Origin: Nitrospirota bacterium
GTDB lineage: Bacteria > Nitrospirota > Thermodesulfovibrionia > SZUA-242
Length of the DNA stretch: 64,000 nucleotides
Assembly (NCBI GenBank): GCA_027021335.1
Contig: JALUUO010000016.1
Location: 1,776 to 65,775 of the forward strand
Direction: 5' to 3'
Part shown: positions 6,736 to 47,164 of the stretch, one piece after another
How the letters are laid out: every line of letters starts with the position of its first letter
How positions within the stretch are numbered: position 1 is the first letter of the stretch
Position numbers and translations under genes: made by a program
The notes under the pieces: model-generated
What the model was told of the DNA's origin: nothing
Database searches by the model: none
Seen by the model: the letters and a program-made list of their open reading frames with translations, nothing else

Positions 6736-6745
6736 CAATTGTGTT

Positions 6746-8716
6746 TTACCTCCTGCTTCCAAAGAGCCTTCGAGCTCTGAGGTAGATGCGCTCACGTTTT
6801 TCTTTTCCAATGGTTGTTTCCTGGTTTCGATTAAGGTTTTCATAGGTTAAGGTTATATCCAAAGTTCTGTAGCGCCAACGTAAATTAGTACGGAAGTTGA
6901 ATGAAACCTGTTTTTCACCCACAAGTTCCTGGTTGCGGTACTGTGTTTCAATATCACACTTTGCTCTGTATGGAAGGAATAAAAACAACTTTGCGGAAAC
7001 TGTACGGTCGATTGAATCCTCAATATACTCGAATGTGGATGTTTCAGAGTAGCTGGCGTTTAGATTTAAAACAGGGTTGAAATATCGTAAATTTTTTAAT
7101 CTGAAAATGAGGACTTCGGAGTATTTTGTGGTTTTATATGGATTTCTAACAGACTTATGAATAGTTTTTTCTGCTCTGGTTGTTGAATTTTTCCACTTTA
7201 TTTCAGTGCCGAATGACTTGTCTCTTATATCTTCAAGCCTGCCGATATCGTTTCCGCCTTTTAGCGATTGATCAGAACTGCCCGCATAGTAAAATACCCT
7301 CCAAGCCCTTTTTATATCCAGTTGTCCCCCATAAGTTTGAGTTCGCGTTTCGAATTCGATTGGAGGAGTAGGTTCAAAGTCGTAGCTTATATAAACTGTC
7401 TTACCTAACAGAAAATCTCCATATGCCGGTAAGAGTCTTATTTTGGTAAGTGTTCCGGATTTTTCCAGTCTGTAGTGAAGCCCTTCTTCAATAGGAAGTC
7501 CGGTTACTGGATCGGTGATCTCAAGGCTGTCTTTATCCTCTATTTTAATTGTCGCCTCATCTACAAGATCCCGTTTTAGAAGAATTACATCATCGCCCTC
7601 CGGGTTTTCTCCAAAAAAATGTTCTTCTCTTGAAATGTGGCTTTTGTCTTCAGAAAAGTTTTCATCTGTGTTTTCTATGAAAGTACGGTAGTTGAGAGTC
7701 AGCCTGCCAAAAGAAAGGCGTTTACGGTAATTGAAACGTAATTCTGCAGAAAGTGTATCTTTTTTGCCTGAGTTTAATGTGTAATTTTCTCCGTTTAGTT
7801 CGACACCTGTACTAAGGCTTTCATAAAGTTGGTGTTTCAGGCCGGCGCGGTACCGGTGTTGTTTTGTCACTTTGCCTACCAGCCTGGAATCCTCATAGTC
7901 GTAACGATAGTAGGAATCAAGGTTTTTTGTATGTCTAATATAGATGTTTTCTCCTACTGTAATATCTCTGTATGGAATTGTGCCTGTCTGGTCTCGCCAG
8001 CGAAACAGGCTTGTCAATGCATGCTGCTCTTTAGAACCGAAGTGGTAAGTGTTTGAGGCATTGACCAGATCTGTCTGTAAATCCAGATGTGCCACAGCTT
8101 GGGACCTTCTTTCGTTTTCATACCTTAAGGTACTTGTCCCTAGCATGCCTTCGTTACGAATGCTCAGGTATGCTCTGTTAAGTTTGTCATTGGTTTTGTC
8201 CTGTCCCTCTCCAACAGAGCTCAGCGTGTCATAACCAAGGTCTGTAGGAAACAATTTATGCCGGTAATGAAGAGCAACCCCTTTTTGGGTGGTAGTGAGA
8301 CGTTGGCTTTCGAAAAAACTGCTGTTTGTATCCTGAGTGTTTCTGTTTGCAAGCAGGGTCATTGATATGGGATGAGACTTTAAAATAAGCATTGATAGGT
8401 TGTAATCAGTGTACTTGTCTCTTAACTCCTGCTGAAACTGCATATTGGATGTTTCAGACTCCTGCTTGAAAATAAACTTCGTGTCGGCTTTGAATTCGAG
8501 AAGGCGTGGGTGATAGACGTAGCCATCCACGCCCAATCCCAGTTCTTCAAATAATGCTTCGTCCAGTTCTTTAATAGGCATGTTCGTCCGCAAATTTTCG
8601 CGGTAATCATTTTCCCGCTCAGCTCCAAGTCCGATAAAACCTCCTAGTCTATTAAAACTGACTGAAGTGATAGGGGTAGTCTGGTTTTGGGCCTGTAATA
8701 AAGGAACCTGTAACAT
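6746..8716 (-). CDS. Hypothetical beta-rich protein, possibly an outer-membrane beta-barrel/porin-like component of the cytochrome cluster
   Basis: 656-aa ORF rich in Y/R/N/T/S with alternating-residue segments typical of beta-barrels. In-frame upstream translation (…KRFKIAIITCFYII-MLQVPLLQA↓QNQ) reads like a signal peptide, but I found no canonical start codon upstream. Confidence 0.5.
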   Translation of the reverse strand: MLQVPLLQAQNQTTPITSVSFNRLGGFIGLGAERENDYRENLRTNMPIKELDEALFEELGLGVDGYVYHPRLLEFKADTKFIFKQESETSNMQFQQELRDKYTDYNLSMLILKSHPISMTLLANRNTQDTNSSFFESQRLTTTQKGVALHYRHKLFPTDLGYDTLSSVGEGQDKTNDKLNRAYLSIRNEGMLGTSTLRYENERRSQAVAHLDLQTDLVNASNTYHFGSKEQHALTSLFRWRDQTGTIPYRDITVGENIYIRHTKNLDSYYRYDYEDSRLVGKVTKQHRYRAGLKHQLYESLSTGVELNGENYTLNSGKKDTLSAELRFNYRKRLSFGRLTLNYRTFIENTDENFSEDKSHISREEHFFGENPEGDDVILLKRDLVDEATIKIEDKDSLEITDPVTGLPIEEGLHYRLEKSGTLTKIRLLPAYGDFLLGKTVYISYDFEPTPPIEFETRTQTYGGQLDIKRAWRVFYYAGSSDQSLKGGNDIGRLEDIRDKSFGTEIKWKNSTTRAEKTIHKSVRNPYKTTKYSEVLIFRLKNLRYFNPVLNLNASYSETSTFEYIEDSIDRTVSAKLFLFLPYRAKCDIETQYRNQELVGEKQVSFNFRTNLRWRYRTLDITLTYENLNRNQETTIGKEKRERIYLRARRLFGSRR

Positions 8717-8853
8717 TATTATATAAAAGCAGGTGATAATTGCTATTTTAAATCTTTTTACTATGTTGCACCTCGTACATCACGTATTGAATTATTTTTT
8801 GTTTATACTTCGCTGATAAAACCATTAAAAACCATTAAAATATTAAACCGGCC

Positions 8854-9504
8854 TCACTCTGTTTTAAGCATAAAACGGGCCTGGCTTCCATGAGGGTCAT
8901 GACACTCTGTACAGGCTGTATCGTCTATTTCCTCATGAATCACTGTTTTTAAAAGTCGATTTTCGTTGTGGCATTTAAAGCAGAGCTTCTGAATAGGCCA
9001 GATCTGCAGCATATACGGGTTTGCGGTTTCATGAGGATGATGACACTCCAAGCAAGCCCCGAATTGAACAGGTGCATGTACCCATGCAAAAGTTTTGCCC
9101 AAATCCTCTTGTGACATATAGTCATGACATCTAAGGCAAATTCTGAGTTTTTTATCTAAAAGGGTGAAACCAACCGGAGCTGCAATAGTCCTTTTTGTTG
9201 TCTGGTGGCATCCATAACACATTTTTACGGCATATGGTGGATGTTGAACCGTTGTAGGAGACAGCTCTACCGGAGCTTTAGTTTGATCCTGGGTGTTTCT
9301 TTTAGCGGCGGTATTAAATTCTTTCCGGTCGGTCGGTTTGATCTCCGGTGGTGTGTCAGTTGTTTTTTTTGTCTTTTGTATTGGCGGAACGCCATCGAAA
9401 AAAAAGGATAAAACACGGTGTTTCGTCATCTGGTCACAACCCTGTAGCATAAAAAAGGCTATGAAAATTGCCGCTATCAAAGTCAATATTTTTTTTTTGA
9501 TCAT
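8854..9504 (-). CDS. Pentaheme c-type cytochrome lipoprotein
   Basis: 216-aa ORF. Signal/lipobox MIKKKILTLIAAIFIAFFMLQGC. Motifs: CYGCH, CLRCH, CLECH, CFKCH and CTECH. Confidence 0.8.
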   Translation of the reverse strand: MIKKKILTLIAAIFIAFFMLQGCDQMTKHRVLSFFFDGVPPIQKTKKTTDTPPEIKPTDRKEFNTAAKRNTQDQTKAPVELSPTTVQHPPYAVKMCYGCHQTTKRTIAAPVGFTLLDKKLRICLRCHDYMSQEDLGKTFAWVHAPVQFGACLECHHPHETANPYMLQIWPIQKLCFKCHNENRLLKTVIHEEIDDTACTECHDPHGSQARFMLKTE

Positions 9505-9505
9505 G

Positions 9506-10699
9506 CTATTTTGTCTTTTTATTTTTTAACGCTTTTGGAGCTCCTGACCCATGTTTTTTACCATATTCTTTCTGATTCTCAACTTCCCCTTTTGCAAGGG
9601 GGCTTCCTTCTCTTGCATTACCAAATCCATAAATATTGATGTATGGCGGTCCGTATTGGCTTGTGACTAAAATCAGGTGTTCTAAAATGAAATCATCATG
9701 GCTGAGCGAATTAAAATAAGACAGCAGGCTTTTGTCTGTTGTAATTCCGGCTGGAAGCCAGAGAGCTCCGGGCACCATGGCGTCTCCCCATCCACCAAAG
9801 AAGAGAGCCGGTTTTCCCTCTGCTGTGAATATTTGAACATTTTCAAACGCTGAATCGACGACATAGATGAAACCTTTATCATCAACAGCAACTCCCTTTG
9901 GCCTGGCAAAGGTTCCAACAGCATCTCCGCATTGTCCAATAACAAGGAGGACATTTCCATCCGGGTCAAACTTCTGTATTCTGCAGTTGAGCGTGTCCGA
10001 AACGTAAAGATTTCCATCTTTGTCAATTGTTAGATTTGTCGGGTGATAAAACTGTCCTTCGTCCTGTCCAGGATCACCGATAATGCTTAAACGTTCTCCG
10101 GTTTTTTTATCCAGGACTTCAACTTCATGGTCTCTTGAATCAGCAACATACAACTTATCCCCAAAGACGGCAACATCAGTCGGCTTAAACTGTTCTTTAT
10201 TGCCAAAAGCCCGCTTGAAATTATTATCCTTATCAAACACAACGACCTGGTGGCGGTCATAGTCGGCAACATATTTTGTCCCGTTTTTATCAAAAGCAAT
10301 ATTTATAGGGCGAATTAGATTTCCGGCTCCCTGGTCGTGAAACCAGTCAAACTTGTTGTTTACAACGTCAATAACCATGACAGTTCCGAACTGGACGTCA
10401 CATACATAGATAATACCGTTATACACTTCTATTCCGTAAGGTTTCCCAAAGTTTCTAACGCTTTCTCCTCCAACAACAAAGGTTTCGAATGCGGAGCGTT
10501 TCTCTACATCCCTGGAAGATGAGATACGTTTAAGAAACTGTACTTTTGGCGGTTGAGGCGGAGGTGGAAAGAACCTGGTGCCAAGTTTTTGCCCGGTTGT
10601 TGCGCATCCACTCATAAGCAGAAGGGTAGACAGGCATGTAACCATTAAATAAAAGGGTGTAACAGTATGTGAAAGGAACTTTATAACTATGGTTTGCAT
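9506..10699 (-). CDS. NHL-repeat beta-propeller lipoprotein, paralog of 5674..6735
   Basis: NHL-type motifs: IYVCDVQFGTVMVIDV, YVADYDRHQVVVFDKD, LYVADSRDHEVEVLDKK, LYVSDTLNCRIQKFDPDGN and IYVVDSAFENVQIF. Lipobox LLLMSGC. Confidence 0.75.
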   Translation of the reverse strand: MQTIVIKFLSHTVTPFYLMVTCLSTLLLMSGCATTGQKLGTRFFPPPPQPPKVQFLKRISSSRDVEKRSAFETFVVGGESVRNFGKPYGIEVYNGIIYVCDVQFGTVMVIDVVNNKFDWFHDQGAGNLIRPINIAFDKNGTKYVADYDRHQVVVFDKDNNFKRAFGNKEQFKPTDVAVFGDKLYVADSRDHEVEVLDKKTGERLSIIGDPGQDEGQFYHPTNLTIDKDGNLYVSDTLNCRIQKFDPDGNVLLVIGQCGDAVGTFARPKGVAVDDKGFIYVVDSAFENVQIFTAEGKPALFFGGWGDAMVPGALWLPAGITTDKSLLSYFNSLSHDDFILEHLILVTSQYGPPYINIYGFGNAREGSPLAKGEVENQKEYGKKHGSGAPKALKNKKTK

Positions 10700-10791
10700 G
10701 CTCTTTCCTCCGGCTTTAATGTGCTTTATAATATATTGATTTTATTCAGTAATGTAAACTTTATTGCCAAAAAAAATCAAGGCATTATTTT

Positions 10792-10831
10792 GCCGAAAAA
10801 AAGCCCTGCGCTCTTAATCGGGGCACAGGGC
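10792..10831 (-). terminator. Rho-independent terminator or attenuator on the minus strand, immediately after the first cytochrome gene
   Basis: Minus-strand sequence GCCCTGTGC-(loop 12 nt)-GCGCAGGGC forms a 9-bp stem including one G-U pair, followed by TTTTTTT. Confidence 0.5.
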
Positions 10832-10858
10832 CATAAATATGGTTGCTACAAATGCTAT

Positions 10859-11569
10859 TTATTTTATATGACAGGTTAGGCAAAGTCCGCTGGCTGTTCC
10901 ACCTTGATTCGCTGATTGAGCTACTCTCAACAGGTGAGTGTTAGGAACGGACTCCTGGTCATGGACGTCATGGCATGAACTGCACTGTACCCTGCCGTTG
11001 TCCAGAACATCTGAGATGGTTCCTGAGAGCCCCATAACCCTGGTTGTCGGATCCCAGAGATTTGGATCAGCTACATTATTATATTCAATAGATATCGGAT
11101 GAGTGTTGCTCATGTTTTTGTCGCCGCTTACGTCCGGGATGCCGGGTATCTGGAACTGGCCGCCTGCAAAGCTGTCAATATAAATTGATCCGCTATTTCC
11201 GTCAAACTGATCAATGCCTATTGTTCCATCGTGGCAGCCCAGGCAGAGCTTCGAAACACCCATGGGTTCAGGTTCGGCAGCGCCGTCTATGAAGTTGGCA
11301 TGACTATCCTCCGCATACATAAGATAGGTAGAGGAGCTTAGATCGTGGTTCCATAAAAGTCCGAAATCAGCTCTGTTACTGCCGAAATCATGGGGTACAT
11401 GGCATACACGGCATATTTCACCGCTGGTATTCCATGTTCTATCGCTAAAATCATGAGGAGATCCAACAATTCCTGCTCCGTTACCTTCTGCAAAAGAGAT
11501 GGTTGCAGTCATGCCTATTACCATTATTGCTGTACAACACAATGTAGCTAATTTTTTCATTTGTAACAC
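10859..11569 (-). CDS. Tetraheme c-type cytochrome, secreted. First gene of the operon
   Basis: 236-aa ORF. Signal peptide MLQMKKLATLCCTAIMVIGMTATISFA. Motifs: CRVCH, CLGCH, CSSCH and CLTCH. Confidence 0.8.
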   Translation of the reverse strand: MLQMKKLATLCCTAIMVIGMTATISFAEGNGAGIVGSPHDFSDRTWNTSGEICRVCHVPHDFGSNRADFGLLWNHDLSSSTYLMYAEDSHANFIDGAAEPEPMGVSKLCLGCHDGTIGIDQFDGNSGSIYIDSFAGGQFQIPGIPDVSGDKNMSNTHPISIEYNNVADPNLWDPTTRVMGLSGTISDVLDNGRVQCSSCHDVHDQESVPNTHLLRVAQSANQGGTASGLCLTCHIK

Positions 11570-11734: not shown

Positions 11735-11750
11735 TGCAATTACCGGGCCA
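11735..11750 (-). promoter_or_regulatory. Candidate sigma-54 (RpoN) -24/-12 promoter driving the cytochrome/NHL operon
   Basis: Minus-strand sequence is TGGCCCGGTAATTGCA, against the consensus TGGCAC-N5-TTGCW. There is one mismatch and the spacing is exact. It lies about 165 nt upstream of the ATG at 11569. Confidence 0.5.
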
Positions 11751-11859: not shown

Positions 11860-11893
11860 CCCACCAACTGAGCCAAAGCGCTCAGTTGGTGGG
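11860..11893. promoter_or_regulatory. 14-bp perfect inverted repeat (CCCACCAACTGAGC-N6-GCTCAGTTGGTGGG). Candidate enhancer-binding-protein (UAS) site or terminator hairpin
   Basis: Perfect palindrome read directly from the sequence. It is centred about 130 bp upstream of the sigma-54 candidate and about 60 nt downstream of the stop of the upstream cytochrome gene. Confidence 0.45.
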
Positions 11894-11955: not shown

Positions 11956-13359
11956 TCAACGATTTTTCACAGCTTTTTCCCTGTTATACTTTCTTGGAAA
12001 GTGACATGCTGGTGCGCATCCGCCGCCGTTGTCATCTATCTTGAAGTTAAGTGGAAACTGCCATTTACCGAATTTTGTGATTTCCCTGATATGCTTTGGC
12101 CCTTTAGATCCATGGATATCATGACATACAACACATCTTCGTCCCTTTTTGGGGTCTTTCTTAACATGAACGTAATGGAGATTGGTTGTTCCGTTTCTAA
12201 AACCGGTGCTCTCGGATGTCTCCTTTTCTTGAACGAGTTCCTCATCATGGCAGCCGAAACATAGGCTATACTTTTCCGGCGCAAACTTGGTGTAAAACGT
12301 GGATGGAAACGCTCTGCGTAACATTCTCCATTCGTTTGAGCCATGAGGATTGTGGCAGGCGGCACAATCACCATCCATCAAAATCGGACCATGAAGTTGC
12401 GGGCGCTCTTTAAGCCATCTTTTCATGTTTATTAGTCTGCCTTTGTCGGTTTTTATTGCACGGTTATGACACTTCAGGCAGAGGTCCATAGTCTCCTCGG
12501 CTTTGAGCTGCTTTGGGAAATCTGATGCGTGTGGATCATGGCAGTTTACGCAGCTTCCCTCGGCCTGGATGGCTCCGTGTGGGGTCTTTACCTGTGTTAT
12601 ATGTTCTTCTTTATCCGAATGGCAGCCATAGCATAGCTCTGGTGGTGATAGAAGGAGTTGGTATTTATTTTCGGTGCCGTGTGGACTATGACATCCGGTG
12701 CACCCAACCATCTCAATGGCTGCGTGGACATACTTCTTGGTTGTAATTGCCTCTTCTTTATCGACATGGCACATAAGACAGACATCTTTGCCTTCAGCAG
12801 GCAGCCGGAAAGGATAGGGGGACTCGTGTGGATCGTGACATATTGTGCACTCTCCTGCTGCCACAGGAGCATGAACATATTTGTGTGTAGTTTTATCATC
12901 CTCATGACAGTTAAAGCAAAGCTTGCTGACCGGAGAGTCTAAAAGTTGATATGGGTTGGGTGATTGGTGAGGACTGTGACACATGGTACAGTCTCCGGAT
13001 GCCACCGGTACATGAACCTCTTTTTGAGTGTTTTTCGGATCATGACACATGTAGCACAAGACGTCACCGGTATCGATAACTTTAAATTTATTGTCTTTTG
13101 TAAGTTCATGACATACCGTGCAGTCCCCCATGGCAAAGGCGGCGTGAACATAGCCGTCTGGTGGAGGGGTGGCAAGATCTTTGTGACATTTAAAGCAGGT
13201 TGCAGGGTTTGAAGCATCAAGTCCTGCATGGCCGGCTTCAGCTGAAAAAGCAGCTTGTGGACTAAAGAGGAAAAGCCGGGAAATAAGTATGCCGGCAAAG
13301 ATAATTAAAGTTTTTTTCAAAAAGTGGTTATTGTTTAGATAATATTTTGGATACAGCAC
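11956..13359 (-). CDS. Multiheme c-type cytochrome (14 CxxCH plus one CxxxCH)
   Basis: 467-aa ORF starting at GTG. The likely real start is TTG at about 13321, giving MKKTLIIFAGILISRLFLFSPQAAFSA. Motifs: CFKCH, CTVCH, CYMCH, CTMCH, CFNCH, CTICH, CLMCH, CTGCH, CYGCH, CVNCH, CLKCH, CAACH, CFGCH, CVVCH and CAPACH. Confidence 0.8.
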   Translation of the reverse strand: MLYPKYYLNNNHFLKKTLIIFAGILISRLFLFSPQAAFSAEAGHAGLDASNPATCFKCHKDLATPPPDGYVHAAFAMGDCTVCHELTKDNKFKVIDTGDVLCYMCHDPKNTQKEVHVPVASGDCTMCHSPHQSPNPYQLLDSPVSKLCFNCHEDDKTTHKYVHAPVAAGECTICHDPHESPYPFRLPAEGKDVCLMCHVDKEEAITTKKYVHAAIEMVGCTGCHSPHGTENKYQLLLSPPELCYGCHSDKEEHITQVKTPHGAIQAEGSCVNCHDPHASDFPKQLKAEETMDLCLKCHNRAIKTDKGRLINMKRWLKERPQLHGPILMDGDCAACHNPHGSNEWRMLRRAFPSTFYTKFAPEKYSLCFGCHDEELVQEKETSESTGFRNGTTNLHYVHVKKDPKKGRRCVVCHDIHGSKGPKHIREITKFGKWQFPLNFKIDDNGGGCAPACHFPRKYNREKAVKNR

Positions 13360-13702: not shown

Positions 13703-13791
13703 GGCCTTGTTTATATGACTTTAGAGGGGTATCCATGTTTAGTTATATGCAATATCAATGCCACATGTTTTGCCCCTCCGTTTTTACCCGC

Positions 13792-15162
13792 TCAGAGAAG
13801 GTAGTATTTTTTCATGCGATATCTAAGGGCGTCTCTGCCCATGCTGAGCAGCTTTGCAGCATGGACCTGATTGCCATGTGCCGCTGCGAGAGCTTGTTGA
13901 ATAAGCTCTTTTTCGACCTCTTCAAGTGAAACGCCTTCAGAGGGAAGGCTGACGGTAGAGCTTGCCGCGCTTAACGCCTTTTCAGGTTGAGTGATTTCGA
14001 TAGGCAGGTGCTCAGGCAGAATAACCTCTTCGTTTTCTAGGATGATTGCACGCTCTATCACGTTTTTCAGTTCACGCACATTTCCGGGCCAGCGATAGCG
14101 TAACATCATTTCTTCAGCTTTTTGAGAGATTCCTTGAACTTTCTTTTTGAAATCCCTGTTAAAAACATTTATGAAATGTTGAATCAAAAGCGGGATATCC
14201 TCTTTACGCTTACGCAGTGGTGGCAGGAATATTGGAAATACCTTCAGACGATAATATAGATCTTCCCGAAAAGTGCCTTTTGCAGAGGCTTCTTTTAAAT
14301 CTTCGTTGGTTGCGGCTATAATTCTGGCATTCACCACGGTCTCCTTTATACCGCCCAGGCGTTTGAATGATTTGCTTTCGATCACTCTAAGAAGTTTTGC
14401 CTGTGTACTCATAGGCATGGCTCCAATCTCATCAAGTAAGATTGTTCCGCTGTCAGCCAGTTCAAAAAACCCTTTTTTCATGGCCTTTGCATCTGTGTAG
14501 GCGCCTTTTTCGTGGCCGAAGAGTTCACTCTCGATAAGGGTTTCTGGAAGAGAAGTGCAATTAATTTCCAGGTAAGGGTTTTCTGCTCTCTTGCTCTGGT
14601 AGTGAATCGCCTTGGCGATCACATCCTTTCCCGTCCCGCTTTCTCCTTGCAGAAGCACTGTTGTTGCATCACTCTTGGCTATTTTTTCAACCATTTCGAA
14701 TACATTTTTCATGGCCTCAGTCTGCCCTACGATGTTTTGCATTCCGTAAAGGCTTTTCTGCTGATTCTTAAAGACATGGACTTCCTTTTTTAGGCTTACA
14801 GTTTCGAGAGCCTTGGAGATAGTTATCTTCAATTTCTCAAAATTAAAAGGTTTTTCGATGAAATCATATGCTCCAAGCTTCATGGCTTTTACCGATGTAT
14901 TGACGTCTCCGTACGCAGTCATCATTATAACCAGCGAATCTTCACGCAGTTTCTTTACCTTTTCCAGGATTTCTATTCCATCGGCTCCTGGAAGTTTGAT
15001 ATCTTGAAGAATAAGATCAGGACGTTCCTGTTCTATGATTTCCATGGCTTCCTCTCCGCTGTTTGCGGTCAGAACTTCGTAGTCTTCCTTCTGCAGGTTT
15101 TCTTTAAGAGACCAGCAGATTAATTTTTCATCGTCCACTACCAGGATGGTTGCTTTAGACAT
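13792..15162 (-). CDS. Sigma-54-dependent transcriptional response regulator (NtrC/AtoC family: receiver, AAA+ sigma-54 activation and Fis-type HTH domains)
   Basis: ILVVDDEKLICWSL...; Walker A GESGTGKDVIAKAIH; GAYTDA motif; C-terminal HTH AAHGNQVHAAKLLSMGRDALRYRMKKY. Confidence 0.85.
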   Translation of the reverse strand: MSKATILVVDDEKLICWSLKENLQKEDYEVLTANSGEEAMEIIEQERPDLILQDIKLPGADGIEILEKVKKLREDSLVIMMTAYGDVNTSVKAMKLGAYDFIEKPFNFEKLKITISKALETVSLKKEVHVFKNQQKSLYGMQNIVGQTEAMKNVFEMVEKIAKSDATTVLLQGESGTGKDVIAKAIHYQSKRAENPYLEINCTSLPETLIESELFGHEKGAYTDAKAMKKGFFELADSGTILLDEIGAMPMSTQAKLLRVIESKSFKRLGGIKETVVNARIIAATNEDLKEASAKGTFREDLYYRLKVFPIFLPPLRKRKEDIPLLIQHFINVFNRDFKKKVQGISQKAEEMMLRYRWPGNVRELKNVIERAIILENEEVILPEHLPIEITQPEKALSAASSTVSLPSEGVSLEEVEKELIQQALAAAHGNQVHAAKLLSMGRDALRYRMKKYYLL

Positions 15163-15165: not shown

Positions 15166-15528
15166 TTAACTATGCTCCTTTGTATATCTGGCAATATACT
15201 CCGCTAGGAGTTTCCGGCAGTGCTCATCACACTTTGTAAACCGGATACCTTTGCCAAAGACGGATTTTCCCCCTTTTTCAGCTTCTCCGGACCAGACTAC
15301 TTGCCCGGATATCCGCAACGGTTTTATTCCTCCAGGAGGGAGTGAAAATTCAAGTTGTATCTCGGTGCCTATTCCCATAGGAATGTCTGTTTTTATAAAA
15401 ATTCCCCCCTCTCCTATATTAACCGCTTCCACCTCATATACTTCCTTTCTTTCTTGCTGTCGTACCCAGTATGTTACAATAATCGACAGCGGTACACGCA
15501 GTGATAACCTTTTTTCCCTAAAGCTCAT
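15166..15528 (-). CDS. PilZ-domain protein (c-di-GMP-binding type)
   Basis: RLSLRVPL...(RxxxR) and ...VNIGEGGIFIKTD (DxSxGG-like). The start is taken at the internal MSFREK to avoid overlap with the upstream kinase. Confidence 0.55.
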   Translation of the reverse strand: MSFREKRLSLRVPLSIIVTYWVRQQERKEVYEVEAVNIGEGGIFIKTDIPMGIGTEIQLEFSLPPGGIKPLRISGQVVWSGEAEKGGKSVFGKGIRFTKCDEHCRKLLAEYIARYTKEHS

Positions 15529-15541: not shown

Positions 15542-17035
15542 TCACTTTGTCTTTTTGGCTGGAAGCAGAACTGTAAAACATGTTCCCTCCCCAATACGGC
15601 TGTTTACTTCTATCCTTCCGTTGTGTTGCTGGACAATCTTCTGGCTGATGGAGAGTCCCAGGCCAGTTCCGGTATGGCGTGTTGTGAAGAAGGGGGTAAA
15701 AATTCTGGACATGTCTTGAGGATATATTCCTTTGCCGGAATCTTTGACCCATATCTCTACAAAGCGTTCTTTGTCTGAGGCCTTCCAGCCTTTCGAAAAT
15801 ATTCTTAAAACTCCACCGTTGGGCATGGCCTGAATTCCGTTGAGCCCAAGGTTTACCAGTACTTGCTGAATCTGTTTCTCGTCTATTTCGACCTTTGGAA
15901 TGGTTTCGTCAAGTTCTGTAACCACCTCTACTCCCTTCTGTGCTGCTCGTTCTTGGATCAGAAACACCACTTGGCGGATCACATCGTTGATGTTGTGTTC
16001 AGCAAGAGCTGGTTTCGCGGTTTTTGCATAGCTTAATAGATCCTTGATGTTTTGATCTATCCGGTCGATCTGTTTCAAAATCTCTTCAAATATTTCGCGC
16101 CTGGGATCATTTTCAGGCAGATCTCCCATCAGGATTTGCATCGCTCCGCTAATACCGGCGATCGGGTTTTTAATTTCATGGGCGATACCGGCTGAAAGTT
16201 CACCCAATGTCGCAAGTCTGTCTGCGCGCTGCATTCGTTGTTCATGAAGTTTCTTTAAATCCTTCTGAGCCGTTTCCAGTTTTGAGATCATTGAGTTGAA
16301 GTTTCGGCCCAACTCTCCGAACTCTACTGTTTCATCCGGTTTGACTCTGGCCGTCAGATCTCCTTTTTCAGCTTTGCGCATAGTGGTTATCAGGCTTTTT
16401 ATAGGGCGGTTAACCAAGTATGACAACAAAAACACAATCGAGATGACTAGTGCAAAAAGAGTGACCAAAACAGAGATGATCATGAATCTTCGAACAGTAG
16501 AGATGCGTTCGTGAAACTTTTCCATGGAGACTTCAACTTCCAAAACCCCATTGATTTGATTAAGTACGGAACCGTGGCAACGAAAACATGGCGGTTGATT
16601 TCTGATAGGCTTGATGATATAGAAAACCGGCTGCTCAAAATTTTTCTGTTCAAATATAGTGTTGAAACTCTGCCGGTGAAAGGTTTCCAGCTCATCTGAG
16701 TTTACTTTCCTTCCTTTTTCTTCAGGAAGGCTGGAGAGCAGGATAGTTCCGTCTTTTGAAAAAATCCTAACCTTCTCAAAATCCGGAAGGGTTCCCACGG
16801 CTTCAATTATATTTCTAACCTCATTGCTCCATCCGTTCAACATGAAGGTTTTAAGGGTTGTCTCGACAGTTTCAGCAATATCCATCAGCCTTTCTTTCGA
16901 AACATCCATGAGTTGATTGTACTGGATACGAAGATGGAGATATGAAGAGACACTGATGGCAAGTGTCAGAATCAGGGTGAGAAAAACTATGAACCTGACT
17001 TTAAGGCTTCGATTTAGTTGTTTAAATGTTTCCAT
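15542..17035 (-). CDS. Sensor histidine kinase (TM, periplasmic domain, TM, HAMP, HisKA, HATPase) with a CxxCH heme-c binding motif in the periplasmic sensor domain
   Basis: H-box AHEIKNPIAGI; G-boxes GTGLGLSIS; periplasmic segment ...QPPCFRCHGSVLNQ... between two hydrophobic segments. Confidence 0.8.
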   Translation of the reverse strand: METFKQLNRSLKVRFIVFLTLILTLAISVSSYLHLRIQYNQLMDVSKERLMDIAETVETTLKTFMLNGWSNEVRNIIEAVGTLPDFEKVRIFSKDGTILLSSLPEEKGRKVNSDELETFHRQSFNTIFEQKNFEQPVFYIIKPIRNQPPCFRCHGSVLNQINGVLEVEVSMEKFHERISTVRRFMIISVLVTLFALVISIVFLLSYLVNRPIKSLITTMRKAEKGDLTARVKPDETVEFGELGRNFNSMISKLETAQKDLKKLHEQRMQRADRLATLGELSAGIAHEIKNPIAGISGAMQILMGDLPENDPRREIFEEILKQIDRIDQNIKDLLSYAKTAKPALAEHNINDVIRQVVFLIQERAAQKGVEVVTELDETIPKVEIDEKQIQQVLVNLGLNGIQAMPNGGVLRIFSKGWKASDKERFVEIWVKDSGKGIYPQDMSRIFTPFFTTRHTGTGLGLSISQKIVQQHNGRIEVNSRIGEGTCFTVLLPAKKTK

Positions 17036-17256: not shown

Positions 17257-17778
17257 ATGAAGATGAAAACCTGGATGGTAATTGTGATGGCTGCGATGTT
17301 GGCGTTTGCAGTAGCAGATGGTGTAGATGCTGCTGATTATGTGGGGGTAAAAAAATGTAAGATGTGCCATATGAAACAGTACAAAAGCTGGAGCAAAACC
17401 AGAATGTCAAAGGCTTTTGAACTTCTGAAACCGGGCGTCGCAGCAGAGGCCAAGAAGGCTGCAGGTGTAGACCCAAACAAGGACTATACTGCAGATGCTT
17501 CGTGCCTGGGATGCCACACGACCAATGGAAAAGCTGATATGCCTGGTGTTCAGTGTGAGGCTTGTCACGGTGCTGGATCGGACTTCATGAAAGTCATGAT
17601 GACCAATCGGAACTATAAGCGTGAGGATATTAAGAAGAAGGGGTTGAATCCGGTGCCTGATGAAGCTGTATGTAAGAAGTGTCATAACAAGTCGAGTCCG
17701 TTTTATAAAGAGTTCAATTATGCTGAGCGTGTAAAAAAAGGAACACACGAGCACTTTCCGTTGAAAAAGCAGCATTAA
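17257..17778 (+). CDS. Tetraheme c-type cytochrome (c3/c7-like), periplasmic
   Basis: RBS AAGGAGGGG. Signal peptide MKMKTWMVIVMAAMLAFAVA. Motifs: CKMCH, CLGCH, CEACH and CKKCH. Confidence 0.8.
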   Translation: MKMKTWMVIVMAAMLAFAVADGVDAADYVGVKKCKMCHMKQYKSWSKTRMSKAFELLKPGVAAEAKKAAGVDPNKDYTADASCLGCHTTNGKADMPGVQCEACHGAGSDFMKVMMTNRNYKREDIKKKGLNPVPDEAVCKKCHNKSSPFYKEFNYAERVKKGTHEHFPLKKQH

Positions 17779-17893: not shown

Positions 17894-18370
17894 GTGACAA
17901 TAGCTGAAGAACTTATACGTAGCAATTTATTTAGAGGGCTTTCAACCAGTGAGCTGGAGAAGGTGGCTGTAATTGCTAAAGAGGTTACTTTTCCTGCTGG
18001 CTTCCGAATATTTTCAGAAGGTGAAAGGGCCGAAACTCTTTATGTTATTAAAGAAGGTATTATAGACCTGACGTTTGGCTTTAAGCTAGGTAAGGTCAAA
18101 AGTGAAATTACCATAGAAACCAAAGGCCAAGGTGATTCGGTAGGTTGGTCCGCACTTATTCCACCTCATATCTATACCCTTTCCGGTGTAAGCCGAAACT
18201 TTGTACAGGCTCTGGTTTTTGATGGGAAATCCATGCTCCAGGTTTGCAAGGAAGATTCAAAATTCGGGGCCGTCTTTATGCAAAATGTTGCGGAACTGGT
18301 TGGGAACAGGCTTACACGGCTCCAATCCATGTTTATTCAAGAGGTTCAACGCGGAGTTTCTGTTATATAA
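17894..18370 (+). CDS. Cyclic-nucleotide-binding (cNMP/Crp-like effector domain) protein without an HTH
   Basis: FRGLSTSELEKVAVIAKEVTFPAGFRIFSEGERAETLYVIKEGIID..., a cNMP-binding domain signature. Confidence 0.65.
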   Translation: MTIAEELIRSNLFRGLSTSELEKVAVIAKEVTFPAGFRIFSEGERAETLYVIKEGIIDLTFGFKLGKVKSEITIETKGQGDSVGWSALIPPHIYTLSGVSRNFVQALVFDGKSMLQVCKEDSKFGAVFMQNVAELVGNRLTRLQSMFIQEVQRGVSVI

Positions 18371-20018: not shown

Positions 20019-20425
20019 TAATTGTAGTGGCTTACAATAATATTTAATGTTGCAACGGTTGTGCCACCTTAATCCCATTTTTTATTAAACATTAAAACAT
20101 ACTGTTTTTCAAGGGTTTTTATTAAAAGTAGTCTATTTTTAACTAGTGTCCGTAAATCGGACAGTGTCTAATAATTGTAAATCTTGTATTTAGTCTTTAT
20201 TTTCAGTGTGTTGTTTATGAATTTTCTTTCTGTTTTCAGATCGGTGTACGAAATTCGGTCAATATGCTGTGTAGGGGAGATGATAAGGTTAAAAGAGATA
20301 CTTTATTTTATAAAACAATAGGTTAGATACTATTTTTAGTTGTGCTCATAGTGTTGGCATATGACTTGCTTAATATCAGGACATTAAAGTATTTCGTGAC
20401 ATCAACTTGTGATGGAAGGGTGTGT

Positions 20426-20920
20426 ATGAGACAAAACCTGTTTAAGACGATATTTTTTACTTTGGTTTGTATCTTTTTTATTGGAGAAGGTGCAGGTGCG
20501 ACTGAGCAACCTATTCAGTATAACCACTACAAGCACACCCAGGAACTGGAGCTGGAATGCAGTATGTGTCACCAGGGGGTAAAAGACAAGGTTCGGGCTA
20601 CGATTCCCAGTGTTGAGGTCTGTATAGAGTGTCACTCTGAACCGGTTACAGACAGCCCTGAAGAAGAAAAGATTCGAGAGTTTTACTCAAAAGGTGAAGA
20701 GATTCCCTGGCAGCGGCTTTTTCGGGTTCCTGAGCATGTTTTCTTTTCCCATAGACGGCATGTGACTGTGGCTGGTATTGAGTGTGAGAATTGTCATGGA
20801 GACATGGCAAAAAGAACAAAGCCGCCTTCTAAGGCTCCTATGAAGATAAGCATGAATAAATGTCTTGCGTGTCACAGGAAGCTTCAGGCTAAAACAGATT
20901 GTGTTTCGTGTCATCGTTGA
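20426..20920 (+). CDS. Pentaheme c-type cytochrome subunit (QrcA/ActA-like) of a quinone-interacting respiratory complex
   Basis: Motifs: CSMCH, CIECH, CENCH, CLACH and CVSCH. It lies immediately upstream of the molybdopterin, FeS and NrfD genes. The start is taken at MRQNLFKTIFFTLVCIFF (signal/anchor). Confidence 0.7.
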   Translation: MRQNLFKTIFFTLVCIFFIGEGAGATEQPIQYNHYKHTQELELECSMCHQGVKDKVRATIPSVEVCIECHSEPVTDSPEEEKIREFYSKGEEIPWQRLFRVPEHVFFSHRRHVTVAGIECENCHGDMAKRTKPPSKAPMKISMNKCLACHRKLQAKTDCVSCHR

Positions 20921-20967
20921 TCCGGTGTATAAACGGTGCGGTTTGAGATTTTGACACTTTAAACGAG

Positions 20968-23463
20968 GTGAAGATGAGTAATATACGGAGAAGGGACTTT
21001 TTAAAGATCCTGACAGGCGCTTCATCCTTTGGTCTTGCATACAGCTATGGGTTGTTCCCTAATATCGTTGAGGGAAAAACACTGGCAAAACAGATGGCTG
21101 ATGCCTCGCTTAGGCCACCAGAGGAAAAATGGGTATCGTCGCTTTGTCAACAGTGTTCGGGCGGTTGTGGTATTCTTGTCCGCGTTTATGGAGACAGGGC
21201 GGTTAAGATTGATGGAAACCCCCTTCATCCCATCAACAGGGGGAAAGTCTGTGCCAGGGGGCAGTCAGGCCTTCAATATTTGTATGATCCTGACAGGATA
21301 AAGGGCCCCATGCTTCGAGTAGGGGAACGGGGTTCTGGAAACTGGAAGCAGATATCTTGGGATGAGGCGCTTGTTTCCGCCGGTGAGAAGCTGAAAGAGC
21401 TTCGTAAGCAGGGCAAGCCGAACTCGGTTGTTATGTTGACAGGCTCACAGGATAAGCTTGCTCAAGATGTTTCAGAGCGCTTTATGGCGGCTTATGGTTC
21501 TCCTAACCTGGTGCATTGTGGTTCAGACCATGCTGCAACCGGAATGGTGCCGGCTATTAATATGATGCAGGGTTGGGAGGCTGGTGTTGTATATGATATT
21601 GAGGCATCTTCCTTAATTGTCTCATTTAATAGTGCTTTTCTTGAGACACCGTGGTCTCCTGTGCAGACATTTCAGGCCTTTGGTAAGTTTCGTAGAGGGC
21701 AGGATGATGTTCGTGGAAAACTCATTCAGATTGAGCCTCGTCTTTCAGTGACTGGAGCAAAAGCAGATACATGGGTTCCGATCCGCCCGGGAACCGAAGG
21801 CGTTCTTGCCTTGGGTATTGCTTCGATGCTGGTACTTGAAAGAAATTATGATGAAGATTTTATGGCCAATAGAACATTTGGTTTTGAGGACTGGACGGAT
21901 AAAAAAGGGGTTCTTCACCCTGGTTTTAAAACTATGCTTATCCAGGAGTATCCCATAAGCAGAGTTGTCCGGGAAACCGGTGTGCCAAGAGATACCATAA
22001 TAAGTATATCCAGGGATCTTGCCAGGCATCAACCGGCATTGGTTATAGGCAATGACGCTGACGGTGTTGGTAATCAAGGTATTTATAACCGCATGGCTAT
22101 ACATGCATTAAACGCATTGATTGGTAGTATTCAGAAAACAGGAGGAGTGCTTTCACGTGCGAGAACTCCGGATTTATCGTTTCTTGCGCCATTTAAGCCG
22201 GATGCCGTAGCTGCCGCAGGATTATCCAGGCCCAGGGTAGATGGCGCTGGAAAAGACGTCTACTCATTAGCCCGGAATGTTCCGGCACGACTGGCCGAGC
22301 GGATTCAGAAGAAGCAGCCGTACCCTGTTGAAGCTCTTCTTCTAAACGGAGCTAATCCTCTTTTTAACAGCCATGACCCTGAGCAGTTCTTGTTGGCGAT
22401 AAAACGCCTGCCGACAATTATCAGTTTTTCTTCATTTATGGACGAAACAACACAGTATGCTGACCTTATTTTACCGGATTCGACTTACCTGGAAAAATGG
22501 CAATTGAGCAGTGCTCATACATTAAAAGGCAATCCGGTGGTCAGTATAGGTCAGCCGGTGATTGATCCTGTTTACGATACTCGTGACAGCGCCGAGGTTT
22601 TGATGTCTCTGGCTCAAACAATGGACAAGTCTGTTGCTGGTGCATTTCCAACTGCAAAATCTCAAGATCTTATAAAAAGCTCGATGAAGACACTTCACAA
22701 GGCCGGCAAGGGAACGTCTTTTGGGGCTCCTTTGGAAGAGCTGTGGACCAAACTATTGGAGCGAAGTGGCTGGAAGGTTCGGAGTCATGAACAGTTTGAA
22801 AAGTTTCTGATGGATGTTCAGGGGCAAGGAGGGTGGTGGGACCCTGTTTATTATCAGTGGGAGTGGAAACGTGTTTTAGGTACTCCGTCAGGAAAATTCG
22901 AGTTCTACTCTCTTGCAGCCAGTAAGTATATTCGTAGTTTGAAAAGCATGGAAAAAGATGTCTTTCTTGAAAAAACAACAGAAATGACCCATCTTGACAA
23001 AACGGACACAGCTTGCATGCCGCATGGTGATCCAGGTGTTCTCAAGGGTAATGAGTCGGTTTATAACCTTGAGTTGAATCCCTACTCTATTCCTATCTTA
23101 AGCGGGCTTTCCCATACAAACCAGGCCTGGCTTCAGGATATCACGGGTTTTCACGTTTATCAGAATTGGCATACCTGGGTGGAAATCAATCCTGAAACAG
23201 CTCATAAAGCAGGTGTTCATAATGGGGATAAGGTTTGGGTTGAGTCTTTGCAGGGTAAAATAGTTGCGAAGGTCCGGATTTATGACGGCGTAATGCCGGA
23301 TGTAATTAATCTGCCGGTTGGGCTGGGACATAAAACCGGTGGAAGATGGACTGAAGGAATTGGTGAGAATGTTCTTCAGATTCTGCAGTACAAGAAGGAA
23401 CCCTTTACCGGTGAAATAAGATTTACAAGATGCCGTGCCCGGTTAATAAAAGCAACGGCGTAA
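20968..23463 (+). CDS. Molybdopterin oxidoreductase-family catalytic-type subunit with a Tat signal (QrcB/ActB1/PsrA-like)
   Basis: Twin-arginine motif RRRDFLKILTGASSFGLA. N-terminal Cys cluster CQQCSGGCGILV...C. 831 aa. Confidence 0.8.
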   Translation: MKMSNIRRRDFLKILTGASSFGLAYSYGLFPNIVEGKTLAKQMADASLRPPEEKWVSSLCQQCSGGCGILVRVYGDRAVKIDGNPLHPINRGKVCARGQSGLQYLYDPDRIKGPMLRVGERGSGNWKQISWDEALVSAGEKLKELRKQGKPNSVVMLTGSQDKLAQDVSERFMAAYGSPNLVHCGSDHAATGMVPAINMMQGWEAGVVYDIEASSLIVSFNSAFLETPWSPVQTFQAFGKFRRGQDDVRGKLIQIEPRLSVTGAKADTWVPIRPGTEGVLALGIASMLVLERNYDEDFMANRTFGFEDWTDKKGVLHPGFKTMLIQEYPISRVVRETGVPRDTIISISRDLARHQPALVIGNDADGVGNQGIYNRMAIHALNALIGSIQKTGGVLSRARTPDLSFLAPFKPDAVAAAGLSRPRVDGAGKDVYSLARNVPARLAERIQKKQPYPVEALLLNGANPLFNSHDPEQFLLAIKRLPTIISFSSFMDETTQYADLILPDSTYLEKWQLSSAHTLKGNPVVSIGQPVIDPVYDTRDSAEVLMSLAQTMDKSVAGAFPTAKSQDLIKSSMKTLHKAGKGTSFGAPLEELWTKLLERSGWKVRSHEQFEKFLMDVQGQGGWWDPVYYQWEWKRVLGTPSGKFEFYSLAASKYIRSLKSMEKDVFLEKTTEMTHLDKTDTACMPHGDPGVLKGNESVYNLELNPYSIPILSGLSHTNQAWLQDITGFHVYQNWHTWVEINPETAHKAGVHNGDKVWVESLQGKIVAKVRIYDGVMPDVINLPVGLGHKTGGRWTEGIGENVLQILQYKKEPFTGEIRFTRCRARLIKATA

Positions 23464-23476
23464 AGGAGTAATACGA

Positions 23477-24160
23477 ATGGCAAAATGGGGGATGGTAATA
23501 GATCTGGATAAATGTTCAGCATGTCAGGCATGTGTTGTTGCCTGTCAAGCCGAAAACAATATCCCAAATTCGAATCCTGAAAGTGCAGCCAAGGGAAGAA
23601 ATATTCACTGGCTGGAGATGATACCTTTTATCGAGGAAGAGTATCCAAATACACAGATGAAGCTTGTGCCTCGTCCCTGTATGCATTGTGAACACCCACC
23701 TTGTATCAAGGTTTGTCCGGTTGGGGCAACCCAAATCAGCTCTGAAGGTATTGTTGGTCAGATTAACGCCCGGTGTATCGGATGCCGTTATTGTACCGCA
23801 GCATGTCCATATACGGTGAAGTCGTTTAACTGGTTTAAACCTCAATGGGCAAAAGGTATGGAGAGAGCCCTTAATCCAGATGTAACTGTTCGCTACAATG
23901 GTGTAGTGGAAAAGTGTACTTTTTGTCATCACAGGTTGCAAAAAGCCAAGGACAAGGCTCGTTATGAGGGACGTGAGTTGGGGCCGGATGACTACATACC
24001 TGCATGTGTTCAGACTTGTCCCAGTGAGGCAATGTACTTTGGAGATCTGGATAATCCTAAATCTAAGGTGGCTATTCTTGCGCGAAGCAGACGAGCTTTT
24101 CAGTTATTGGAAGACCTTGGTACCCATCCCAAGGTGATTTATTTAAATGAAGGAGTATGA
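23477..24160 (+). CDS. 4Fe-4S ferredoxin-type iron-sulfur subunit (QrcC/ActB2/PsrB-like)
   Basis: Four Cys clusters: CSACQACVVAC, CMHCEHPPCIKVCP, CIGCRYCTAACP and CTFCHHR...CVQTCP. Confidence 0.85.
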   Translation: MAKWGMVIDLDKCSACQACVVACQAENNIPNSNPESAAKGRNIHWLEMIPFIEEEYPNTQMKLVPRPCMHCEHPPCIKVCPVGATQISSEGIVGQINARCIGCRYCTAACPYTVKSFNWFKPQWAKGMERALNPDVTVRYNGVVEKCTFCHHRLQKAKDKARYEGRELGPDDYIPACVQTCPSEAMYFGDLDNPKSKVAILARSRRAFQLLEDLGTHPKVIYLNEGV

Positions 24161-25556
24161 CATGGACCTGAGCAAGGCCTTTGAACATGATGAAAAGATT
24201 CTCCTCAAGCCCATTCAAGAGGCGAATCGTAACTTTTACATTACAGTTGGTCTCCTTTCTCTTATTGTGGGTTGGGGATTTTATGCTTATTTTCAGCAGT
24301 TCCAAAATGGACTTGGTGTTACTGGTCTAAACCGACCGGTATACTGGGGATTTTATATCACTAACTTCGTTTTTTTCATAGGCATAAGTCATGCCGGAAC
24401 TCTGATATCGGCTATTCTTAGAATTGCCCAAGCCGAGTGGCGCCGGGCGATCACCCGATCCGCGGAAGTTATAACGGTAATGGTGATTCTGTTTGGCGTG
24501 GCCAGTATTTTGATGGATCTTGGCCGTCCGGACCGGATAATTAATATAATAAAGTTCGGGCGTTTTCAATCACCTCTTCTTTGGGACGTTACGAGTATAA
24601 CCATCTACTTGACCGGTAGTACGGTCTATCTGTATCTACCCCTGATTCCGGATATCGCTATTATGCGCGACAAGACCAAAAAGAGAAAGTGGTTATACAC
24701 TGTTTTGGCCCTGGGATGGGAAGGTACTCCAAAGCAGTGGCATCGCCTGGAGTTGGCTATTTCGGTTATGGCGATTCTTGTTATTCCTGTTGCTGTTTCG
24801 GTGCATACAGTGGTTTCTTTTGTCTTTGCGATGACTGTTCAGCCTATGTGGCATTCGGCAATCTTTGGACCCTATTTCGTGGTCGGGGCTATATATTCGG
24901 GTATTGCAGCTTTAATTGTTGCTATGGCTTTAATTCGCTGGGTGTACAAGTTGGATGATTACCTGAAAGACATTCATTTTACGAACCTGGGAATACTGCT
25001 CTTTGTGTTTACTTTGTTATGGACATACTTTACCTTTGCAGAGTACCTAACTACTTTTTACGGGGCAGAGCCCACCCATATGGCAGTTTTTTGGTCCAAG
25101 TTTAACGGAGAATACAAATATGAATTTTGGGGAATGGTGGTTTGTTGCCTTGTCATACCGGGTATCATTTTAAGCAATCGGAAGTTGCGTACTATTAAGG
25201 GGAGTGTTTTTGCATCCTTGGCCATTACAGTTGGAATGTGGTTAGAGCGCTTTATTATTGTGGTTCCTACCCTTGCCAACCCACGCCTTCCTTATGAACG
25301 CGGGGTTTATCACCCAACCTGGGTGGAATTGTCACTTCTGGCTGGTTGTTTTGCTTTCTTCATTCTGTTGTATGTGCTGTTTACCAAGTTTTTCCCTATT
25401 GTCTCGATTTGGGAAATAGCGGAGGGAAGAAAGCATGCGGTTGCTGAGGTGGCTGGCAGGGTTAAAACATACCTGCCCGATACCTATGGAGAGATGCACG
25501 GGGTGGTAGTCTCTGGGCAGGAAGAAAAAACCATTCTGAAAGACATTCAACAGTAA
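24147..25556 (+). CDS. NrfD/PsrC-family integral membrane quinone-interacting subunit (QrcD/ActC-like)
   Basis: 469 aa, highly hydrophobic with multiple TM helices. Its position after the FeS subunit fits the assignment. Confidence 0.75.
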   Translation: MKEYDMDLSKAFEHDEKILLKPIQEANRNFYITVGLLSLIVGWGFYAYFQQFQNGLGVTGLNRPVYWGFYITNFVFFIGISHAGTLISAILRIAQAEWRRAITRSAEVITVMVILFGVASILMDLGRPDRIINIIKFGRFQSPLLWDVTSITIYLTGSTVYLYLPLIPDIAIMRDKTKKRKWLYTVLALGWEGTPKQWHRLELAISVMAILVIPVAVSVHTVVSFVFAMTVQPMWHSAIFGPYFVVGAIYSGIAALIVAMALIRWVYKLDDYLKDIHFTNLGILLFVFTLLWTYFTFAEYLTTFYGAEPTHMAVFWSKFNGEYKYEFWGMVVCCLVIPGIILSNRKLRTIKGSVFASLAITVGMWLERFIIVVPTLANPRLPYERGVYHPTWVELSLLAGCFAFFILLYVLFTKFFPIVSIWEIAEGRKHAVAEVAGRVKTYLPDTYGEMHGVVVSGQEEKTILKDIQQ

Positions 25557-25558
25557 AA

Positions 25559-47150: not shown

Positions 47151-47164
47151 ATAAGGAATAATTA

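Follow-up and report, generated by a model that had tools for sequence, protein, structure and literature searches.

Kinase gene and membrane topology

On the reverse strand of a 64,000-nucleotide stretch from a Nitrospirota bacterium of the SZUA-242 lineage (GenBank assembly GCA_027021335.1, contig JALUUO010000016.1; hereafter the window), the open reading frame (ORF) at 15542-17035 encodes a 497-residue sensor histidine kinase with a c-type haem attachment motif, CxxCH, in its periplasmic domain. The kinase gene lies among genes for multihaem cytochromes and is followed by genes for a PilZ-domain protein, a sigma-54 activator and a single-domain response regulator, the positions of which are collected in Table 1. 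The frame begins with ATG, and its N-terminus is consistent with that of 35 full-length homologues.

The order of domains is that of a membrane-bound sensor kinase, with two transmembrane (TM) helices on either side of the sensor domain, a HAMP domain and a catalytic core. The positive-inside N-terminus and the two hydrophobic segments around the sensor domain indicate an extracytoplasmic location, and because the HAMP domain must be cytoplasmic and directly follows TM2, the loop of about 150 residues that carries the CxxCH must be periplasmic. A reading of the sequence alone (the sequence-only reading) had placed the motif between two N-terminal TM segments and had called it the only one in the protein; hydropathy and the position of the HAMP domain bear out the first point and argue against a cytoplasmic motif, and C150-F-R-C153-H154 is indeed the sole instance. 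These two cysteines and C486 are the only three in the whole kinase.

The catalytic core keeps its characteristic motifs. In an alignment (A1) of 36 full-length homologues, drawn from a search that returned hundreds of proteins at 97-100% coverage, the predicted phospho-accepting H286 lies in an invariant AHEIKNP sequence, and the N, G1, F and G2 boxes are intact, with N395, N399, D432, G434, G436, F446 and G456-L461 invariant (box sequences D432-G-K-G436, F446-P-F-F and G456-T-G-L-G-L). The core is nearest to the AtoS/ZraS type in NCBIfam, with a score of 277 bits against an AtoS cut-off of 646, and matches PDB entry 9jfj with an E-value (E) of 3e-43.

Table 1 Features of the kinase, its regulators, the neighbouring cytochrome genes and the sigma-54 promoter-like sites
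Feature	Position	Strand	Basis
Sensor histidine kinase, TM1 / sCache_heme / TM2 / HAMP / HisKA / HATPase_c	15542..17035	-	ORF list, Pfam
TM1, about aa 14-32	16940..16996	-	Kyte-Doolittle 19-aa window >1.6; four K/R in aa 1-14
Periplasmic single-Cache haem-c sensor domain (predicted), about aa 33-183	16487..16939	-	Pfam, family profile vs PDB, AlphaFold2, Foldseek
M65, predicted distal haem ligand	16841..16843	-	Met60-equivalent in GSU0935 by profile alignment
CFRCH haem-c attachment motif (C150, C153; H154 = predicted proximal ligand)	16574..16588	-	Translation, conservation, alignment to GSU0935/GSU0582
TM2, about aa 184-206	16418..16486	-	Hydropathy up to 3.1
HAMP, aa 204-254	16274..16426	-	Pfam PF00672, E 7.9e-13
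HisKA/DHp (dimerization and histidine phosphotransfer), aa 277-338, phospho-accepting H286 (codon 16178-16180)	16022..16207	-	Pfam PF00512, E 3e-14
HATPase_c catalytic domain, aa 385-494	15554..15883	-	Pfam PF02518, E 5e-24
PilZ-domain protein, 120 aa from M23 of the listed ORF	15166..15528	-	Pfam PilZ E 9e-12; called start
NtrC/AtoC-type response regulator and sigma-54 enhancer-binding protein (receiver / AAA+ / HTH_8)	13792..15162	-	Sigma54_activat 9e-68, Response_reg 7e-31, HTH_8 9e-16
Single-domain response regulator, 124 aa	13328..13702	-	Pfam Response_reg 5e-29
Multihaem c-type cytochrome, 467 aa, 14 CxxCH, overlapping the end of the response regulator gene	11956..13359	-	Paired_CXXCH_1 4e-72; DmsE/GSU2203-like, sub-threshold
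4-haem c554-like periplasmic cytochrome, divergent beside kinase	17257..17778	+	Pfam Cytochrome_C554 3e-17
Operon: c7-like 5-haem cytochrome, molybdopterin oxidoreductase (831 aa), 4Fe-4S protein, NrfD-type subunit, multi-domain cytochrome c (426 aa)	20426-26839	+
TGGCCC-N5-TTGCA, one mismatch, upstream of the 1050-11569 cytochrome cluster	11735..11750	-	Pattern match
TGGCAT-N5-TTGCA, 46 nt upstream of the small response regulator gene, before the 14-haem cytochrome	13748..13763	-	Pattern match
TGGCAC-N5-TTGCA, upstream of a 5-haem cytochrome gene (true start 20018 or 19982)	20051..20066	-	Pattern match
TGGCAT-N5-TTGCT, upstream of the c7-like cytochrome / molybdopterin oxidoreductase operon	20355..20370	+	Pattern match

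The periplasmic domain and its predicted haem ligands

The haem motif is conserved to a degree that a chance occurrence does not explain. From the amino-acid composition of the window's non-cytochrome ORFs, about 7e-4 CxxCH motifs would be expected in a protein of 497 residues, whereas the motif is present in 272 of the 273 domain instances that cover the site (267 homologous proteins); a chance CxxCH was considered and is ruled out on these numbers. Counted by column over ungapped instances, C150 is conserved in 275/275, C153 in 274/275 and H154 in 274/274, and the column of M65 holds methionine in 273 of 279 domain instances. All four residues are invariant in the 36 full-length homologues, down to 38% identity.

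The likely role of M65 became apparent from the comparison with known structures. A profile of 38 periplasmic domains (A2) matches, end to end, the crystallized sensor domains of the Geobacter proteins GSU0935 (PDB 3B42, E 4.5e-12) and GSU0582 (PDB 3B47, E 2.6e-9). The CxxCH pairs with the CQSCH of both proteins (His144/His143) in this alignment, and M65 falls on position 26 of the 3B42 chain, which corresponds to residue 60 when His144, at position 110 of the chain, is used to set the numbering. M65 is thus predicted from the alignment to be the distal haem ligand in the manner of Met60 of GSU0935, which would place the domain in the His/Met subtype. At the sequence level, both structures were reached only by the domain profile, a single-sequence PDB search with the kinase returning kinase cores only. 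An exhaustive search with the periplasmic domain alone gave 293 cluster representatives at E ≤ 1e-3; a word-index search with the same query found no match although identical proteins exist, which reflects a limit of the index and not their absence.

Family models place the domain near two Pfam entries. The isolated domain scores 24.9 bits on Tll0287-like (PF11845), narrowly above the cut-off of 24.1, and 31 of the 36 full-length homologues match Mcp40H-20_sensor (PF21563) at E ≤ 0.01. Tll0287 itself (PDB 5B82) was not reached by the A2 profile at E ≤ 10, and what ties the domain to the Tll0287 branch is therefore the marginal Pfam match together with the literature. An AlphaFold2 model of the sensor domain (predicted local distance difference test 78, predicted template modelling score 0.68) has a long N-terminal helix and a beta sheet, with the CxxCH on a short helix (119-125) between strands 108-116 and 132-141. 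The best Foldseek match of this model is the extracellular single-Cache domain of WalK (E 1e-6, template modelling score 0.65-0.70), and the search also recovers 3B42 (E 6e-5) and 3B47, along with the Cache domains of CitA, DcuS and DctB. The model thus points to a single-Cache fold, and the place of the short CxxCH helix, inserted between two late strands, is that described for the sCache_heme family (Pfam PF11845/PF21563).

From its homologues, the periplasmic domain is predicted with near certainty to carry a covalently bound haem. The proposal of the sequence-only reading that the kinase is a redox or haem-based sensor with haem c in its periplasmic domain gains support from the sequence and fold homology to GSU0935 and GSU0582 and from the conservation of both axial ligand positions. 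Its further statement that haem-c sensor domains are rare does not hold: sCache_heme (DUF3365 / Tll0287-like), described in 2026, comprises more than 20,000 sequences with 99% CXXCH conservation, is enriched in Nitrospirota and Desulfobacterota, where it occurs in more than 50% of genomes, and has HAMP-HisKA-HATPase_c among its commonest fusions (PMC12889525). The kinase joins an already described and widespread sensor family, and its sensor domain is nothing new in kind.

Comparison with characterized haem-c sensors

The closest characterized relatives are GSU0935 and GSU0582, the structures behind PF21563. The domain resembles theirs in lying between two TM helices and being followed by HAMP, in its length of about 130-150 residues, in its PAS-like/Cache fold with a single CxxCH toward the C-terminus, and in the aligned proximal histidine and Met60-equivalent distal methionine. 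The two Geobacter proteins differ in having a chemoreceptor output, whereas here the output is HisKA/HATPase and is paired with a sigma-54 activator; identity over the Foldseek alignments is only 14-18%, and the Geobacter crystals show a domain-swapped dimer. Known from crystal structures and spectroscopy (reviewed in PMC8396549), the Geobacter haem is high-spin when oxidized and low-spin with His-Met ligation when reduced, with midpoint potentials of -156 and -251 mV for GSU0582 and GSU0935. Both domains bind nitric oxide (NO) in either redox state and carbon monoxide (CO) when reduced, displacing Met60, and a redox-linked ligand switch has been proposed as the signal (PMC8396549).

Within sCache_heme, the domain resembles the signalling-associated 'Cluster 2', with which it shares the Cache fold, the CXXCH helix between late strands, the extracytoplasmic location, the HAMP-HisKA-HATPase_c fusion and a Nitrospirota host. 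It is unlike the characterized Cluster 2 example, an sCache_heme-HAMP receptor of P. azotoformans that has no kinase output and behaves as a selective NO sensor with a koff of about 6e-4 s-1, like H-NOX and NosP; that domain is without an axial Cys or Met, and water has been proposed as its sixth ligand (PMC12889525). It also differs from Tll0287, first described in 2017 as cited in PMC12889525, and from the P. putida protein, both of which stand alone and have Cys/His ligation, while this clade has Met at the distal position. By literature listing, the kinase resembles eight two-component proteins of Geobacter sulfurreducens with haem motifs (GSU0283, GSU0303, GSU0356, GSU0599, GSU1302, GSU2314, GSU2816 and GSU2916; PMC8396549) in having a periplasmic c-type haem motif in a host rich in multihaem cytochromes. 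The haem-c Cache proteins characterized so far comprise chemoreceptors, one receptor with HAMP alone and proteins that stand alone. In the searchable literature we found no regulon for any haem-c Cache kinase, the Geobacter haem-motif kinases included, and no functional study of those kinases or of haem kinases controlling extracellular electron transfer.

Conserved gene order and the probable partner of the kinase

The kinase gene is followed after 13 nt by the PilZ gene, which is followed after 3 nt by the activator gene. We compared nine loci of relatives, five near (L002-L006) and four distant (L011-L014). The closest relatives are uncultured Nitrospirota genomes, with kinase identities of 87% (L002) and 63-66%, and wherever the contig is long enough they keep the order of divergent c554-like cytochrome, kinase, PilZ, activator, small regulator, multihaem cytochrome, 4-haem cytochrome and NHL propeller. 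The c554-like cytochrome adjoins the kinase in L002, L003, L004 and L006 at 64-90% identity, and the small response regulator is kept in L002, L004, L006 and L013.

In each of the nine relatives the kinase gene is followed by one for a homologous sigma-54 activator, which in the four distant homologues (38-41% identity) lies directly downstream while the other neighbours are different. As the activator is kept even in these differing neighbourhoods, the kinase-activator pair is the conserved core, and the activator is the likely cognate partner. The activator is nearest to AtoC, NtrC and ZraR in NCBIfam. The pair thus resembles AtoS/AtoC, ZraS/ZraR and NtrB/NtrC in its kinase core, its sigma-54 enhancer-binding regulator and the -24/-12 sites nearby, and is unlike AtoS, ZraS and NtrB in its unrelated sensor domain, with all NCBIfam scores far below the equivalog cut-offs.

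The PilZ protein scores 61.9 bits on TIGR02266, below the cut-off of 68.7. Of the two binding motifs of a cyclic di-GMP receptor, RxxxR is present as R-L-S-L-R, and the second reads N-I-G-E-G-G, in which Gly replaces the Ser of (D/N)xSxxG; the L004 orthologue has the canonical N-V-S-E-G-G. The gene is present in L003-L006 and has been deleted in L002, the relative whose kinase is 87% identical, where only a remnant of its 3' end is left (L002 2301-2433). We therefore rejected an obligatory relay through PilZ. The sequence-only reading had the kinase wired through PilZ and the sigma-54 activator to a cytochrome operon; no observation supports passage of the signal through PilZ, the gene for which is deleted in L002, and the link from activator to cytochromes retains in silico support from gene adjacency and promoter-like sites.

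Two other arrangements were seen among the relatives. In L004 (11769-15349), and likewise in L006, two extra genes separate PilZ from the activator, encoding a 594-residue periplasmic-binding-protein-like protein and a 664-residue second membrane sensor with HAMP and PAS-like regions. In L013 (4395-6919), the kinase, activator and small regulator form a trio directly downstream of ResB and CcsA, the system II cytochrome c biogenesis proteins.

Sigma-54 promoter-like sites and the cytochrome genes

The whole window was scanned for the sigma-54 (-24 GG / -12 GC) pattern TGGYAY-N5-TTGCW, and the sites given here are pattern matches only. There are three exact sites where 0.31 are expected, a number reached in 1% of simulations, and each of the three is correctly oriented and precedes a start codon by 35-60 nt. 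One stands before the small response regulator gene and has an equivalent in L002 (3869-3884) and L006 (17110-17125); the other two are divergent, upstream of a 5-haem cytochrome gene and of the molybdopterin oxidoreductase operon. A fourth, with one mismatch, lies upstream of the cytochrome cluster at 1050-11569, and exact sites occupy the equivalent position in L004 (19105) and L006 (19084). Overall, the positions of promoter-like sites are conserved in L002, L004 and L006. Use of these promoters, and binding of the activator near them, would be consistent with the sequence pattern. Scans for sigma-70 promoters and for terminators did no better than on shuffled sequence.

Between the divergent sites lie two related palindromes 98 bp apart, TGTCCGTAAATCGGACA at 20147-20163 and TGTACGAAATTCGGTCA at 20245-20261. 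They were found post hoc and are candidate enhancer-binding sites.

The genes behind these sites encode a large complement of haem proteins. The 14-haem cytochrome gene beside the small response regulator probably belongs to a sigma-54-dependent unit of its own; a 14-bp perfect hairpin lies 3' of it at 11860-11893. The cluster at 1050-11569, on the reverse strand, encodes a 4-haem cytochrome, NHL propellers, a 5-haem cytochrome, a 656-residue protein, an 11-haem cytochrome and a 15-haem cytochrome, and may perform extracellular electron transfer. The 656-residue protein (6746-8716, reverse strand) sits between multihaem cytochromes and two NHL beta-propeller proteins (9506-10699 and 5674-6843). 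It has no Pfam match, a Y/R/N/T/S-rich, beta-barrel-like composition and, in the listed ORF, no obvious signal peptide, and it may supply the porin in a porin-cytochrome conduit. The cluster ends distally with an unusual fusion, the 932-residue protein at 1050-3848 (reverse strand), in which six putative Cu-binding motifs of the MopE type (PF11617, E 3e-62) are joined to a multihaem C-terminal part containing 15 CxxCH. On the other side of the kinase, the operon at 20426-26839 looks like one for a quinol-linked oxidoreductase complex, of the alternative-complex-III or Psr type.

Proposed mechanism and alternative explanations

We consider it probable that the protein is a two-component kinase with a haem-c single-Cache sensor of the GSU0582/GSU0935 type that acts through the sigma-54 activator on nearby cytochrome promoters. 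Its topology, motif conservation and homology, the gene order and the promoter-like sites are read directly from the sequence; haem attachment, His/Met ligation and the ligand switch are expected by analogy with the homologues. The exported domain would receive haem on C150 and C153 via the cytochrome c maturation system, with H154 as the proximal iron ligand and M65, which closes the long N-terminal helix running on from TM1, as the distal ligand in the ferrous state. Oxidation would free the methionine, with a change from low spin to high spin, or NO or CO would displace it, as in the Geobacter domains. Conservation of the two ligand positions, together with the place of M65 at the end of the TM1-linked helix, leads us to infer that the same redox-linked switch may operate here. 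Movement of this helix would pass through the TM helices and HAMP to the DHp and catalytic domains and alter autophosphorylation at H286.

For the phosphotransfer partner, the regulon and the physiological signal, we are guided by gene context. The phosphoryl group would go to the NtrC/AtoC-type activator encoded two genes downstream, which would in turn switch on three units: the small response regulator with the 14-haem cytochrome; the downstream cytochrome, NHL-propeller and putative porin cluster; and the divergent 5-haem cytochrome and molybdopterin-oxidoreductase/NrfD operons. As a hypothesis drawn from sequence, this regulon is plausible. A more specific proposal, which we put forward tentatively, is that the kinase senses how oxidized or reduced the periplasmic electron pool is and feeds back via the activator on the cytochrome, NHL-propeller and putative porin cluster, with its roughly 50 haems, and on the quinol-linked molybdopterin-oxidoreductase complex. 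Input may come through the divergent 4-haem c554-like cytochrome, which could act as redox partner and bring the sensor haem into equilibrium with the pool.

Several observations weigh against the explanation as a whole, from sensor domain to promoters. At the level of the domain, the whole protein scores 23.0 bits on Tll0287-like, just under the cut-off of 24.1, and the isolated domain reaches 16.9 of the 27 bits required by PF21563, though the whole model is covered. At the level of the locus, conservation of the cytochrome neighbourhood does not extend beyond the Nitrospirota subclade, the distant homologues adjoining unrelated genes, and no rpoN appeared among the scanned ORFs of the window. 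The palindromes have no counterpart upstream of 13763, at other promoters or at other loci, and one activator may not serve all sites. Finally, the P. azotoformans receptor, a signalling-type member of the family with an NO release comparable to that of H-NOX/NosP, behaves as an NO sensor (PMC12889525), and the stimulus may thus be something other than redox potential.

This last point leads to an explanation that we judge unlikely: the haem may sense a diatomic gas, NO or possibly CO, that displaces the distal ligand, rather than ambient redox potential, with the cytochromes and oxidoreductases being induced by nitrosative or denitrification intermediates. The displacement of Met60 by both gases in GSU0582 and GSU0935 (PMC8396549) would fit such a sensor, as would the c554-like cytochromes nearby, a weakly NrfA/NapC-like cytochrome and a NorB-cytochrome-c-like cytochrome c. 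However, the NO-sensing example lacks an axial Cys and is proposed to have water as its sixth ligand, whereas this clade keeps a near-invariant methionine at the Met60 position, the feature linked in Geobacter to the redox switch, and the window yielded no gene recognized as that of a dedicated NO reductase or nitrite reductase. A doubt of a different order, and one we find scarcely credible, is that the CxxCH is incidental or metal-binding and the domain an ordinary small-molecule Cache domain. The motif is single, the whole-protein Pfam score is marginal and the best Foldseek matches are the haem-free WalK Cache domains, but such a domain would be hard to reconcile with conservation of the motif so far above chance, with full-length profile homology to two crystal structures that contain covalent haem c, or with the conserved Met ligand; in addition, the CXXCH is as strictly kept across the family at large, and haem has been demonstrated experimentally in four members (PMC12889525, PMC8396549).

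It could also be that haem sensing is real and the main output lies elsewhere, in the single-domain regulator or in PilZ and cyclic di-GMP, leaving the sigma-54 sites under another activator. The cluster contains genes for two receiver proteins and one PilZ protein, the small regulator is retained in several relatives including a distant one, and the palindromes between the divergent promoters are missing upstream of 13763. We nevertheless regard this as very improbable: the activator comes right after the kinase in every relative, even where the neighbourhoods differ, PilZ is dispensable in L002, and the small regulator, standing behind a sigma-54-like promoter, fits a target or feedback element better than a primary partner.

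If redox feedback through the activator is correct, no sCache_heme kinase before this one would have had its regulon defined, and the kinase would control an electron-transfer conduit by redox feedback in a lineage other than Desulfuromonadota. The locus is a compact, testable case, with one kinase, one activator and a set of multihaem cytochrome and oxidoreductase operons directly preceded by three or four promoter-like sites, in an arrangement kept in several Nitrospirota genomes. The most useful product of the analysis is a testable regulon hypothesis that leads from a periplasmic haem sensor to multihaem cytochrome operons in uncultured Nitrospirota; if confirmed, it would explain how an uncultured, cytochrome-rich lineage tunes expression of its electron-transfer genes to periplasmic redox.

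Other features of the window

Between the genes for the c554-like cytochrome and the 5-haem cytochrome, on the forward strand, 17894-18370 encodes a stand-alone cyclic-nucleotide-binding-domain protein of 158 residues without a DNA-binding domain. Farther away, a 1296-residue protein at 41921-45811 (reverse strand) consists almost entirely of RCC1 repeats, with 17-20 repeat matches, and a smaller RCC1-repeat protein is encoded near the homologous kinase in L012. The adjoining segment at 46001-50000 has a GC content of 0.34-0.39, compared with about 0.44-0.48 elsewhere in the window, and may be an acquired or surface-polysaccharide island.

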